Assembly (NCBI RefSeq): GCF_006345805.1
Contig: NC_043001.1
Span: 96,782,001 to 96,846,000, forward strand
Direction of reading: 5' to 3'
Length of the DNA: 64,000 nt
Source of the DNA: Octopus sinensis
Taxonomy: Eukaryota
Part shown: piece by piece, positions 28,211 to 44,032 of the stretch
Layout of the letters: every line of letters starts with the position of its first letter
Numbering within the stretch: position 1 is the first letter of the stretch
Made by a program: the position numbers and the translations under genes
The notes under the pieces: generated by a model
The model's input: only the letters and a program-made list of their open reading frames with translations
What the model was told of the DNA's origin: nothing
Database searches by the model: none

Positions 28211-28410
28211 TAACGGGAAGCTTTATGAAAATAAACAAAAGACGAAGGCAGGTGGAAAACAAACGAACAATTGTATTAGTATGGCGCTCAGGAAATATAA
28301 ATAAAACAAGTCTTTAACGTTTCGAGCCTACCCTCTTCAACAGAAAGATACACAGAGAGAGAAAGACACAGAAAGAGGAGAGAAAAAAAATGCGTGCAGT
28401 AGCGAAATAT
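28211..28410 (-). mobile_element. Short hammerhead-bearing element, family A (~195 bp), in (TA)n
   Basis: Same ends and internal sequence as 43848-44032 in the opposite orientation. Motif at 28311-28348: TCTTT-CTGTTGAA-GAGG GTAG GCTC-GAAACGT-T-AAAGA. Confidence 0.75.
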
Positions 28411-28434
28411 ATGCATATATATGTACAGGGTAAC

Positions 28435-28657
28435 AAGTAGTGAGCTGGGAGATTCGTTAGCACACCGGAGGAAATGCTTAGCAGCATTTGTCTGTCGCTA
28501 CGTTGTGATTTCAAATTCCACCGAAGTCGAACTTTCCATCCTTTACCTTCCATCCTTTTGGGGGTGAATAACTTATGTACCATTGAACCACTGAGGGCGA
28601 TATAATCGTCCAATCCTCTTCCCCAAAATTTCAGGCCTTGTGCCTATAGTAGAAATG
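28435..28657 (+). mobile_element. SINE family 2 (decayed) ending in (ATT)n
   Basis: GAGCTGGGAGATTCGTTAGCACACCGG...TTCAAATTCCACCGAAGTCGA...CCCCAAAATTTCAGGCCTTGTGCCTATAGTAGAAA. Confidence 0.75.
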
Positions 28658-30510
28658 ATTATTATTATTATTATTATTATTATCATTATTATTATTATTA
28701 TTATTATTATTATGATTATGATTATTATTATTATTATTATTATTATTATTATTATTATTATTATTATTATTATCATTATTATTATTATCGTCATCGTCGT
28801 TCTTGTTAATCTTACTGTTTTCTTAAGGGATCTCTTCATTTGCAGCATCTGGGTTGTAGAGAAACTTGAAATTCAGGGTGCTAAAACTCATCATGTCTCT
28901 CTGTAACACAAAACGTTTCACCTTATTAACTCTCATTATTATTAATCAGTTAATGAGAAATTTTGTAACCGGTGGTGTCAATTTTCTAAAATGAGCCAGC
29001 TCAGAGAAAATATTCCCTAAAACTAAAATAAATAATCGGTGTGAAATTCTCCCTATTAAGAAACACGTAGAATAACTTCCAAAGTAATGAAACAATTAAT
29101 GCGCTTCTCGAGAAAAAGATCCTACAAAAACGAAGCTATTTGTTTCCAAGAAAAGAACAATTAAATTACACTGCATCGTCACTCACGAGCGAGTATGGGT
29201 TGGTAATATATACCATGCTATTACTAGTTCTTTTAGCTGGGCTCTGTTGATCCAGCGAGATACCAGGATGTGATAAATGGGGAGATAGAATGGTGCGCTT
29301 GTGTTCGAAGGGTTTTCATTTACAGCTGGGTTAGATTGGAGGTACGAGAAATGAAGTGCTTTGCTCAAGGATAAAATGTTGTTTTCGGTTTATGTGTATA
29401 AGCTTGAGTGAATGGTTTATCCAGTATATTGCAACTAAGAAGAGGTAAGTTCTACCAGCAAACCGCTGGTACTGAATTAAAGCAGAACAGACTAGAATAT
29501 ATATGAAATGAATTGCCTTGTTGAATGGGCTCTCTCTGAACCAGTGGTTCAGGATGTGACGACTGGAAGCAGAGAGGAAGAGAGAGAGAGAGAGAGGAGT
29601 GACGGGGAGAGAAAGGGATGTATTGGTACCTGGCGCTGCTTATTTTCGTATGAATTGACTGGAGTAACATGAAATGCAATTGCTCAAGGACACAATACAA
29701 TACCTGACCTGTGAGCTGACCCTTCAAACGTTTCTTCATGAGACGAACTCGCGATCCACTTGACAATATACCTTACCATACACAATTAGAATTGTTTAAT
29801 TACAAGCTCATTGCTTAAGGATTTGAGATTTTTAGCTCTCATTATCTTATTCTGTAATGTTTTGTAGGATTAGATAAGTGAATGTGGCTTTTATATATTT
29901 AAGGAGATTTTCGGAAGATTCGGCTATTTTTTCTTCTATCATTCCGATCGGACGACCAGGTAGAGGATCCCTGATTATAACTGGTTTACATAGTAACATC
30001 AGCAAATTATACTACCTTAATTCTATACAATGGGTAATTACTATAGCGAATCCAGTACAATGAAGTATCTTAAGATAGCTGTCATAGGATTCATAACCAT
30101 TAAACCGTTCTCGTGATCAAGTGAAAGCTACAATCGATTCTAAAAATAGTGTAGCCACTATATAATTGAACTCCATTTTATACTTTAATCATTTTAGTTT
30201 CCAACTTTATTTGCTCTCGACTTAGCTATTGTTAGATTTCTAAGTCAATTTCCTTTCTCCATTTAGAGACACTAACTTGCATAACGCGTCTAGACACACG
30301 TACAGAAAAGAACTGCACAAACGTATATATTATAAAACAGTAATTTTCATCAAATGTAGTAAAACATGACTTATAATAATATTCTATATTATGTATTTTA
30401 TCGTCATTATTTGTAATATATAGCTACTATATTTTTTCTGTTACTTGTTCCAGTCCTTGGAGTCCGCCCGTGGTGGGGCGTCGTCTTGAAGGATTTAGTC
30501 GGACATATTA

Positions 30511-30574
30511 ACCCCTAGTATTTATATCTTAAACCCCTAGCATTTATATCTTAAACCTAGTATTTATATCTTAA
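30511..30574. repeat. 22-bp minisatellite, 3 copies, inside a decayed SINE family 1 tail
   Basis: ACCCCTAG(T/C)ATTTATATCTTAA repeated three times. Confidence 0.85.
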
Positions 30575-31070
30575 TCTATAGCCTCTTTCGTTGAACAGCT
30601 AAATTACGGGGATTTTAACAAGGTTACACTCTTTGCAATGTGTGATTGTAAAGAAACATGAACACAAAGACATCAAATGTCTCTCTCCCTCTCTCTCCCC
30701 TCTCGCTTTTCCTCTCTCTCTCGCTCGCACACCCCCACCAATTTATATATATATATATATATATATATATATAATATATATATATATATATAAATTTATA
30801 TATATACTCTAGAACTAGAACGAAAAGAGAATCAGTATATATATAAATATATATATATGAAATACCATGCCGATTCAAGCACTTTCGCTGTCTATGACCT
30901 CTTGATGTCATCTACAGTCTTGATATAAGTGTCACTATATATACCTCAGGAATTCCGCTGTGTTCTTCGAGTATATAACATATAAGAGAAACAGAATAAT
31001 GCTTCTCGGGAATTCCATTTTCTATTTCATTCATTTGCTATATATATGTAATGGAAGGAAAATGCACACA

Positions 31071-41200: not shown

Positions 41201-41309
41201 TTCTCTTCTGGTCAGCTTTCTTTGGTATCGAGGTCTCGCATCAATATGTCGCTACTGGGAAGATAATTGCATTCACCAATCTGCATTTGGTATATATATA
41301 TATATTGTA

Positions 41310-41392
41310 TATCTCGAGCAAGGACGATGTACTGCAATAGCTTGAGATTCAAGGGCCCACAACTGTTTAACCATCTGCCGAAGCATCTGAGG
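41310..41392 (+). pseudogene. CR1/L2-like LINE C-terminal fragment
   Basis: SRARTMYCNSLRFKGPQLFNHLPKHLR matches the conserved N.LP motif at the ORF2 end. Confidence 0.55.
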
Positions 41393-41395
41393 AGC

Positions 41396-41876
41396 GGGTT
41401 AGGATTAGGGTTAAGGGTTAAGGTTAAGGGTTAGGGTTAGGGTTAGGGTTAAGGTTAGGGTTAGGGTTAGGGTTAGGGTTAGGGTTAAGTTTAGGGTTAG
41501 GGCTAGGGTTAGGGCTAGGGTTAGTGTTAGGGTTAGGTTTAGGGTTAGAGTTAAGGTTTAGGGTTAGGGTTAGGGTGAGGGTTACGGCTAGCGTTAGGGT
41601 TAGGGTTAGGGTTAGAGTTAGGGTTAGAGTTAGGGTTATGGTTAGGGTTTGGGTTAGGGTTAAGGGTTAGGGTTAGGGTGAGGCTTAGGGTTATTGTAAG
41701 GGTTAGGGTGAGGCTTAGGGTTATTGTAAGGGTTAGGGTTAGCGTTAGGGTTAGCTTTAGGGTTAGGGTCAGGGTTAGTGTTACGGTTAGGGTTTGGGTT
41801 TAGGGTTAGGGTTAGAGTTAGGGTTTAGGGCTTGGGTTAGAGTTAGTGTTAGCGTTAGGGTTAGGGTTAGGGTTAG
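41396..41876 (+). repeat. Interstitial telomeric sequence, degenerate (TTAGGG)n, roughly 80 units
   Basis: Directly visible. Contains an exact 30-bp higher-order duplication at 41671-41700 and 41701-41730. Confidence 0.95.
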
Positions 41877-43847
41877 ATTTTGACATCACTCTGTAACGTT
41901 TTGCTTTTAGCGCCATCTCTTCTGCCCTGGTATTTAAATTTATATTGCATTAAGAGACACATCAACTCGAAATGTGTCGGTGAATCTACGCCAGTCACAG
42001 CTGATTTTACCCTATATTATTAAAATTAATATTTTAATAAATTCACTCCATGTTCTAAACATCATTTTTTCTATGGTTGTAACACATGTTGTAACACACA
42101 CGTGAGTATAAAAGATGGATATGAATTGTGCTCGGCTGCATATTTTTACAAGAGTGGATAGATAGCATTCACGCGATGTATCTTGATCGCATACATATTT
42201 ATAAACAATCGTGAATTTATCTGGAATATTACGCTGGTAATTATGTTTTACTTTAAGTTCGAAATACGACCGTAACTAACCACGGCCTTATTAATTCATC
42301 ATTTTTCTTTTGTCTATATCAAAACTGTTATTTCCTCGGAGATTTTTATGGTAGAAAAAAGATATCGTCTATTTCTAGATCAGTACGTGGCGAGGCACAT
42401 AGCTGACCCCTTGTTATAATTATGTATTTAATTATAGAATAATTTGTAAAATTTACCTAAAAGGTTTTTATTTAAATGCTAGCTACCTGTATATATATTA
42501 TATATATATATATTATATATATATATATATATATATATATAATATATATATATATATATATATATATATATATATATATATATATATATAGATATGTATA
42601 TATGTATGTATATAGTATATGTGCGTGTTTGTGTGTGTGTGTGTATACACATCCATACAAAATTGTGTATGTATAGAAAAAGCAATTTTGTCTTGATATA
42701 AAATAATATGTACGTAGAACACTTCATTAGAAAGCGCATCAGAACTGTCAAATATGTAATTATTTCTTGCAGGCGTGTAACAGGATATCGTGAAAAACTG
42801 TTTCGTGTAGGGAATGAATATGATGTCTAGTGACACATCGAAACGTGGATAAGTAAATCTTTATTACAATGGATTTCTTTACACCTTTGACAAAGTAGAA
42901 GTGAGAATGTATTTATTTTGGCGTTATAAAAAGAAAAATCGTAGAGAGACAGTGAAGCACGTATATGTGAACGTGCACTTGCCTCTAGTGCTAAAAACTA
43001 CTCTCTCCCAAACAGGTTCTATATTTAGTCAACCTTTCCAAATCGCCAACGTCCAAACAACCGCGTCTGATACTCTAGGTTTGGTTAAAGGATAATGGTA
43101 AGTAATCAACTACGTAACCCGAGTCAGTTGAAGGGATGACATGACATGATATCCGATTGCGTCTACTGCTGGCTTTTTTGCAGAAGTGGTATAATTATAT
43201 TGTCAAATTCACGTACCCTGAATTACATCTTGCTTCAGTTCTTTAAAAGAATAAGAAGTAGTTCTTAAAAAAATGTTCTTAAATGTCGATCTCATCGTGG
43301 ACAAGCTACTCTCAATAACACCCAGTAAAACGAATTAAAGGAAAGCGAAAACAGGCGAAAGCACCAAATCTTTCTAATAAACCGATATGGTGTTTACATA
43401 ACCCTTAGAAAAAATTTAAAATTTACTGAATCCAAACAAAGGGAGTCTTTGTGCATTGCGGTTCATGGGTGGTCAGCTAGACATTTGCTGATCCGTCAAA
43501 ATCTTGTGCAGTAGGCGTATCTCTCTCAATTGTCAAAACAAAACGGACTGAAAAATCAATACTGGCACAGTTGGTAAAATATTCGACTAAGTATTGTCAA
43601 TGACGTTGTTAATATGCAACACACGCGCACATATCTCACGGACGGATACAAACACATAGATACCCTTTACACACATATCATTTCATATCATAACATATCA
43701 ACATATCATATATATATATATACACACATATATATAGGATGTGTGTGTACTCATATATATATATATATATATATATATATATATATATATATATATATAT
43801 ATATATATATATATTTATATAAATACATGTACACAAATGCATATATA

Positions 43848-44032
43848 TCGTTAGCTCCTACACGCATTTTTCTCTCTCCTTGTTTTTGTCTGTGTATCTT
43901 TCTGTCGAAGAGCGTAAACTCGAAACGTAAAAGACTGTTTCTATTTATATTCCTGAGCGCTATACTAATACATTTGTTTGTTTGTACTCCACCCCCCTTC
44001 GTCTTTTGTTTATTTTCATTAACTTTCCCGTT
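43848..44032 (+). mobile_element. Short hammerhead-bearing element, family A, flanked by (TA)n
   Basis: Motif at 43897-43934: TCTTT-CTGTCGAA-GAGC GTAA ACTC-GAAACGT-A-AAAGA. TTCCTGAGCG at 43950-43959. Confidence 0.75.

Follow-up and report, generated by a model that had tools for sequence, protein, structure and literature searches.

Short hammerhead-bearing repeats of Octopus sinensis as truncated ends of Penelope-like elements, two families of which carry a U6 core

Minimal hammerhead ribozymes occur in Penelope-like elements (PLEs), and what they do there is still debated (PMC8557442, PMC11167929). PLE copies with a fixed 3' end and ragged 5' ends have been described (PMC8557442). For a PLE of the green anole, catalytic hammerhead mutants insert normally in vitro, reverse transcriptase (RT) starts internally and cleavage requires the protein, and RNA-seq ends at the cut site were not found (PMC11167929). 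The part of Figure S3 of PMC4209133 examined has A at core position 6 (A6) in every row, and the descriptor used in that survey required the core, so that a motif with U at this position (U6) would be missed. Here, we studied such motifs in a stretch of 64,000 nucleotides (hereafter the window) from Octopus sinensis (assembly GCF_006345805.1, contig NC_043001.1, positions 96,782,001 to 96,846,000 of the forward strand), in which three short repeats, A1, A2 and B, each hold a minimal hammerhead and lie beside (TA)n tracts. A preliminary description of the window had taken them for a separate retrozyme-like family of fixed-end, ~190-nt mobile RNAs. The features concerned are listed here under the interpretation argued for below.

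28152-28211, no strand: (TA)n tract adjoining the 3' end of A1, seen in the sequence.
28212-28406, minus strand: copy A1, the 5'-truncated 3' end, or pseudo-long terminal repeat (pLTR), of the youngest family-A PLE subfamily, 97% identical over ~210 nt to both pLTRs of the full-length copy L100.
28311-28348, minus strand: minimal hammerhead of A1, with stem I of 5 bp, core CUGUUGA, an extra A, a decayed stem II of 3 bp, and GUU.
40534-40738, minus strand: copy B, the 5'-truncated 3' end of a sister PLE family, 89-92% identical to 39 other genomic copies, the longer of which run into RT/GIY-YIG sequence.
40634-40668, minus strand: minimal hammerhead of B, with canonical CUGACGA, an extra A, stem II of 4 bp with a 3-nt loop, GUA, and a stem I decayed to 2 bp.
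43848-44032, plus strand: copy A2, the 5'-truncated 3' end of a member of the U6-C7 subfamily of family A, 88-95% identical to 39 other genomic copies, many of which reach further 5'.
43897-43934, plus strand: minimal hammerhead of A2, with stem I of 5 bp, core CUGUCGA, an extra A, a decayed stem II of 3 bp, and GUA.
44033-44118, no strand: (TA)n tract adjoining the 3' end of A2, seen in the sequence.
56034-56106, plus strand: a fourth family-A 3' end of 73 nt, without hammerhead and flanked by TA-rich tracts, 83.6% identical to A2 positions 114-185 (E 2e-16).

A1 aligns with A2 at 81% identity over 195 nt (E 8e-48), and B with A2 at 74% over 85 nt (E 5e-6). Three minimal type I hammerheads stand at the places first claimed for them, each carrying GAAACGT-H and a single additional A behind A9, and the cores read at the loci (CUGUUGA, CUGUCGA and CUGACGA) confirm U6 in A1 and A2 and A6 in B. 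On the minus strand, C3, U6 and H17 of A1 lie at 28343, 28340 and 28316, and C3 and A6 of B at 40664 and 40661; the corresponding positions of A2 on the plus strand are C3 at 43902, U6 at 43905 and H17 at 43929. All three copies end beside (TA)n, and a search of the window for tRNA was empty, in agreement with the reported lack of a tRNA head. The stems need correction: stem I, given as TCTTT/AAAGA for every copy, is indeed 5 bp long in the A copies but is GUUU/AAAC in family B, with 2 bp left in the window copy, and stem II, given as GAG(C)/(G)CTC, is a 4-bp GAGC/GCUC in family A, of which both window A copies have lost one pair. We also considered the repeats as a short interspersed nuclear element and rejected that identity, since the window lacks tRNA and the copies lack a constant 5' head. 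A scan of the window with a loose descriptor (CUG-N-N-GA, an optional extra base, stem II of at least 3 pairs, GAAA-palindrome-UH) gave four matches at three loci, namely A1, A2 and B only, and 30 shuffled windows gave 0-4 matches (mean 1.0). This descriptor by itself is weak evidence; support comes from sequence similarity and from a search of the 2.72-Gb genome with the exact core, positions 6, 7 and 17 being left free, which returned 12,136 matches and none for a reversed control. The 150 of 381 matches listed from an Rfam scan of the window were microsatellite noise and included no hammerhead family.

The nature of the repeats becomes clear from their longer relatives. The 30 best A2-like loci have a near-identical 3' end, and most of them extend 5' of position 43848 by differing amounts. 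Walking upstream from A2-like copies leads through C/A-rich simple sequence and on to the thumb of a PLE, followed by a C-x4-C-x2-C linker and GIY-YIG. For this family-A GIY-YIG domain, the genome has 16,663 first-look candidates; 150 of them were scored, and these sit in open frames of up to 975 codons. Six of the 12 long-frame loci fetched (L099, L100, L101, L102, L103 and L105) are full-length copies, 89-96% identical to one another, in which a hammerhead-bearing pLTR is followed by a short TA spacer, a body with RT, CX4CxxC linker and GIY-YIG, a long simple-sequence 3' untranslated region (UTR), a second hammerhead-bearing pLTR and (TA)n. The upstream pLTR, a direct repeat resulting from a partial tandem, measures 466-1,125 nt in six of the 12 loci, and the hammerhead, present in both pLTRs of L100, L102, L103 and L105 as well as of L099 and L101, has U6 in both. 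L100 has an open frame of 949 codons, in which RVT_1 scores above its cut-off (E 1.4e-8) and GIY-YIG below it (E 0.007, with a YIGQT motif), and its 5' coding part is broken. Homologues, which carry no clade names, bear PF00078 and often PF01541, the endonuclease domain has CxxC and two His, and the C-x4-C-x2-C linker recurs in the frames of both families. The longer B copies lead to a sister PLE with the same linker, 45-69% identical to family A in amino acids and 67% in nucleotides.

To avoid bias, copy ends were sampled from the first 100, in genome order, of the 7,031 places in which a motif lying 3' of the cut site matches exactly. Their lengths run from 90 to >1,580 nt with 88 distinct values (15 below 130 nt, 38 at 170-230 nt and 18 above 1,000 nt; 10 extend past the fetched stretch). 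The 3' end motif is present in 98 of the 100 and a TA-type tail in 96, and TA stands at the 5' junction in 68 of 90. Thus, of the boundaries that A1 and A2 had been said to share, the 3' end is fixed, also in the 73-nt window copy, and the 5' end is not, varying over >1.5 kb genome-wide; the near-coincidence of the A1 and A2 starts, which lie a few bases apart, is not improbable, given that 38 of the 100 sampled copies measure 170-230 nt. The absence of an open reading frame (ORF) holds for the fragments and not for the parent element. The proposed origin from a pseudo-LTR with Penelope machinery is supported; full-length elements encoding RT and GIY-YIG carry A1-like pLTRs. A separate family of fixed-end RNAs is not supported: 5' ends are ragged and longer copies are continuous with a coding PLE, and variable ends and attachment to longer elements are what the preliminary description had itself named as grounds for refutation. 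Where a non-LTR retrozyme would consist of short tandem repeats of a fixed non-coding hammerhead unit, these are dispersed, variable-length ends of a coding element.

Family A combines an ORF with RT and C-terminal GIY-YIG, pLTRs of variable length, 5' truncation with a fixed 3' end and a minimal hammerhead in the pLTR, which are the features of an endonuclease-bearing (EN+) PLE. Judged by this sequence comparison, the three window repeats almost certainly represent 5'-truncated 3' ends (pLTRs) of two autonomous EN+ PLE families. As such, they are themselves ordinary truncated retrotransposon ends. With high, slightly lower confidence, we read them as PLE ends left behind in (TA)n, with the U6 core carried by the master elements of two families, A and the older C. 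Copies end 103-104 nt downstream of the hammerhead cleavage site (H17), and the template must therefore have contained an intact hammerhead sequence, either as uncleaved RNA or as a religated circle. Under our interpretation, a transcript from the upstream pLTR would be bound by the element's own protein, and the GIY-YIG endonuclease would nick a (TA)n tract. Synthesis of cDNA would then start internally at the pLTR end, at the TA spacer, which could pair with the target, and RT would read back through the intact hammerhead, usually stopping after 100-500 nt and often at a TA microhomology.

The U6 core is propagated and did not arise by decay after insertion, as the preliminary description had supposed. 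U6 occurs in 11,742 of the 12,136 exact genome matches, leaving 394 with another base, and it stands in both pLTRs of full-length copies. A hand count of the first 100 of the 12,136 matches listed gave U6 in all, with N7 taking all four bases (U52/A21/C14/G13) and H17 being U or A, and one subfamily pattern had 1,641 matches with U6 vs 14 with A6. Among the first 100 of the 394 non-U6 matches listed there are 68 C, 22 A and 10 G, which is what decay would give. Nine of these 22 A6 matches have G7, vs 13% G7 in the family, and there is possibly a small A6-G7 sublineage, either revertant or ancestral. Nine A6 copies in the C7 group stem from a targeted fetch. Single contigs labelled as two other organisms span position 6 without difference, in a weak comparison that missed even the variable N7. 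One metagenome match to the U6 minimal hammerhead (n=1) was put down to chance, lying as it does inside a bacterial-type protein-coding stretch. Our literature search found no natural A6U hammerhead core, the one A6U entry listed being a paper on twister; the largest survey of PLE-linked small hammerheads (Lunse et al.) lay outside that search and might contain U6. A 2026 annotation of octopus repeats lists Penelope-like families, and its main text has neither hammerhead nor ribozyme (PMC13282606). This known type of element carries a core variant that is possibly not yet described.

Comparison between families places the change at a single core position. The PLE minimal hammerhead core, CUGANGA-N-stem II-GAAA-palindrome-NUH, is complete in family B, which has A6 in 53 of 53 classed copies, and families A and C depart from it at position 6 alone. 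Family C came to light next to L007 and shares the core of A, with U6 in 13 of 13 classed copies. Within a 28-nt motif, A and C differ only at N7 and H17, and their flanks and RT are ~70% identical; across subfamilies and families, the core, stem II and the palindrome are constant and N7, H17, loop II and the flanks vary. Families A, B, C and D have in common a second conserved block, YYGAGYG followed by TAATAC, ~20 nt past the cleavage site (e.g., window 43953-43962). An alternative fold might pair this block with the 3' strand of stem II, and CpG decay would give the same variation. An older family-D motif (L272:6613, equal to the upstream part of L110), seen in a single copy, has U6, an extra G in place of A and a stem II of 5 bp. 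One family-C copy (L270) passes straight from RT and thumb to the 3' UTR and pLTR and gave no match to the endonuclease; it occurs three times (L148-L150) with common flanks, as in a segmental duplication. Another minimal hammerhead family (L085, minus strand, 2885; L114, minus strand, 1361) has canonical CUGAUGA, an extra A, a 5-bp stem II and a covarying stem I; it adjoins (AAC)n/(AAT)n repeats and is probably a further PLE family.

Whether the U6 core cuts is a question apart from the origin of the repeats. Mutations of the CUGA turn have low activity (PMC9901934), and a natural A6C hammerhead is slow in Mg2+ (PMC3088659, PMC7151607), and low activity of U6 is therefore likely. Folding predictions are of limited help: z-scores of the 43-nt motifs are unremarkable (0.72, -0.35, -1.87 and -1.53), and co-folding of two units did not return the active dimer, a non-nested structure that received no score. 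The U6-U7 monomer is predicted to mispair its core with AACG as a hairpin 2.4 kcal/mol below the open fold. A general rule by which U6 would shut the core in a hairpin was rejected, the effect being clear for U6-U7 alone; the predicted gain is only 0.2 kcal/mol with C7 or A7, and mispairing is predicted for a natural A6 copy too. Taken together, our analysis leans towards a U6 core that is a weak or protein-dependent ribozyme, whose cleavage would not be needed for insertion and whose 28-nt motif would be kept by selection.

Several observations weigh against this interpretation. Strong conservation of the whole core except N7 and H17 is also what an active ribozyme would be expected to show. 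The closeness of A and C in the hammerhead (87-91% identity, vs 64-72% in the flanks and 72% in the RT region) is inflated in the core, as copies for the A/B/C comparison were chosen within 2 mismatches of it. In the full-length copy L182 the upstream pLTR begins 1-2 nt past the cleavage site. The data on internal initiation come from a Poseidon-clade element with a hammerhead over its start codon, which is another clade than that considered here. Cleavage followed by ligation would also yield switches between A and B inside the hammerhead, and such switches exist: five of seven matches to chimera patterns join an A 5' part to a B 3' part, switching within a 15-nt shared window that holds the cut site. 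The chimeric pLTRs (L163, L164, which equals L034, L165, L167 and L168) derive from at least three different U6 subfamilies, and no switch was seen at a second A/B shared patch in the loci examined.

A rival explanation keeps the same elements but has a U6 hammerhead that works in vivo, in which pLTR motifs would dimerise through ACGU and cleave with help from the PLE protein or Mn2+, and RT would run around the RNA, ligated into a circle, to give copies of more than unit length. We regard this as possible and not the likelier course. The constancy of core, stem II and palindrome amid variable positions speaks for it, as do the varying lengths of the upstream pLTR, the activity of the A6C hammerhead in Mn2+, which is good (PMC7151607), and the protein-assisted hammerhead of the anole PLE (PMC11167929). 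Stem I has a single compensatory change between the two families (C-G in A, G-C in B), which points the same way, but across the 10 hand-picked copies compared, with 89% of cells paired and stem II invariant, covariation is not above shuffles, 34 of 500 of which reach the score. The chimeras lose force as well: their window is the longest A/B identity, so that template switching explains them equally well; the H17 base of L165 looks B-side, which places the switch before the cut; and the second-patch control was limited to loci enriched for hammerhead chimeras. A pile-up of copy starts or ends at the cut site was sought in the sampled copies, and only one of 100 starts there. The mispaired hairpin predicted for the U6-U7 monomer also tells against cleavage. 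A bolder version, which we consider improbable, would make CUGUNGA a working natural variant switched on by the element's protein or by Mn2+ and kept through several waves of a retrotransposon of >10,000 copies, with the U6 hairpin inactive until dimerisation and the A/B chimeras being footprints of cross-family cleavage and ligation.

Less probable still is a family-A hammerhead that is dead, with U6 having hitch-hiked on a successful master lineage and the motif unconstrained. Substitutions at A6 do reduce activity in published assays, and Naiad PLEs proliferate without canonical hammerheads (PMC8557442), but dead sequence should drift like its flanks, and the 28-nt motif differs at N7 and H17 alone against ~70% identity around it.

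A non-autonomous, retrozyme-like or solo-pLTR subfamily of fixed ~190-215-nt length, transposing on its own template, is very unlikely: the 38 of 100 copies at 170-230 nt with several common start positions, the few tandem or nested pLTR clusters (L028, L030 and L013) and the solo retrozyme monomers described elsewhere (bioRxiv 10.64898/2026.07.22.740005) would suit it, but the recurrent starts lie at target-matching AT dinucleotides in different subfamilies, as repeated truncation predicts, lengths are continuous, short copies bear the same diagnostic bases as ORF-bearing ones, and the loci examined held small clusters of 2-3 pLTR pieces and no long tandem arrays.

Other features were seen along the way. 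Pieces of family A, B and C pLTRs share (TA)n tracts, in tandem or inverted, at L007, L012, L013, L028, L030, L190 and L283. In the window, an isolated family-A GIY-YIG coding fragment without pLTR lies at 13228-13314 on the plus strand (84% nucleotide identity, 89% amino-acid identity over 27 residues), and a decayed linker and GIY-YIG remnant of a more distant PLE family, with 40% amino-acid identity to family A, at 31447-31665 on the minus strand. The window repeat search was dominated by simple repeats. Two ~207-nt inverted-repeat pairs, 15378-15585/16800-17007 (98%) and 10714-10920/57555-57761 (89%), are probably other dispersed repeats, and a near-perfect palindrome at 27880-27957, ~250 nt from A1, scores on both strands in the Rfam scan.

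This genome offers a natural comparison, with U6 families A and C vs A6 family B in thousands of copies each, alongside A/B chimeras and rare natural A6 copies within A. Should U6 prove unable to cut, great expansion of a PLE would be shown to be compatible with a crippled ribozyme, the motif being kept for another job. If it does cut, the accepted hammerhead core needs widening, and large families have escaped searches whose descriptor demands CUGANGA. Were the chimeras truly footprints of cleavage and ligation, PLE hammerhead activity and circular intermediates would for the first time have been traced in vivo.

The closest described motifs are the minimal hammerheads of PLEs (Cervera and De la Pena 2014, PMC4209133), which share with those studied here type I topology, a stem I of 4-5 bp, one nucleotide between A9 and G10.1, the G10.1-C11.1 pair, palindromic positions 15.2-16.2, a U-rich 5' flank, GUU or GUA triplets, and thousands of mostly solo copies from truncated PLEs. 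They differ in having CUGANGA where families A and C have CUGUNGA. A stem III that is palindromic, an additional A behind A9 and dispersed solo copies are therefore described PLE hallmarks and not new, and the analogy first drawn between the extra residue and the CChMVd viroid hammerhead is unnecessary, the residue being a conserved trait of PLE minimal hammerheads. By domain layout, which is not the same as placement on an RT tree, family A resembles the Neptune/Nematis-type PLEs with C-terminal endonuclease (Craig et al. 2021, PMC8557442), which have the same RT, CX2-5CxxC linker and GIY-YIG with CCHH, heavy 5' truncation, a partial tandem pLTR, a hammerhead near the 3' end, and a (TA)n bias, linked there to the linker. 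The octopus family differs in its 3' UTR of ~0.8 to >2 kb of C/A-rich simple sequence and in its U6 core.

Like the octopus copies, those of the Poseidon element PAc of the green anole (Frangieh et al. 2024, PMC11167929) end downstream of the cut site in AT-rich targets, which fits internal RT initiation on uncleaved RNA. PAc belongs to another clade and has a canonical hammerhead over the start codon, in contrast to the position ~0.7 kb upstream of the ORF start found here. Metazoan non-LTR retrozymes (Cervera and de la Pena 2020, PMC7229834; Li et al. 2026, bioRxiv 10.64898/2026.07.22.740005) are likewise short, non-coding, PLE-related and of type I, but form tandem 150-450-bp units with mostly canonical hammerheads, whereas in the octopus the copies are scattered, have ragged 5' ends and run on into a coding PLE. 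The natural A6C hammerhead of phage Bcep176 (Perreault et al. 2011, PMC3088659; Naghdi et al. 2020, PMC7151607) is also substituted at position 6; there, the base is C and the locus single, whereas here, as known from sequence alone, U6 is fixed in a retroelement lineage of >11,000 copies.

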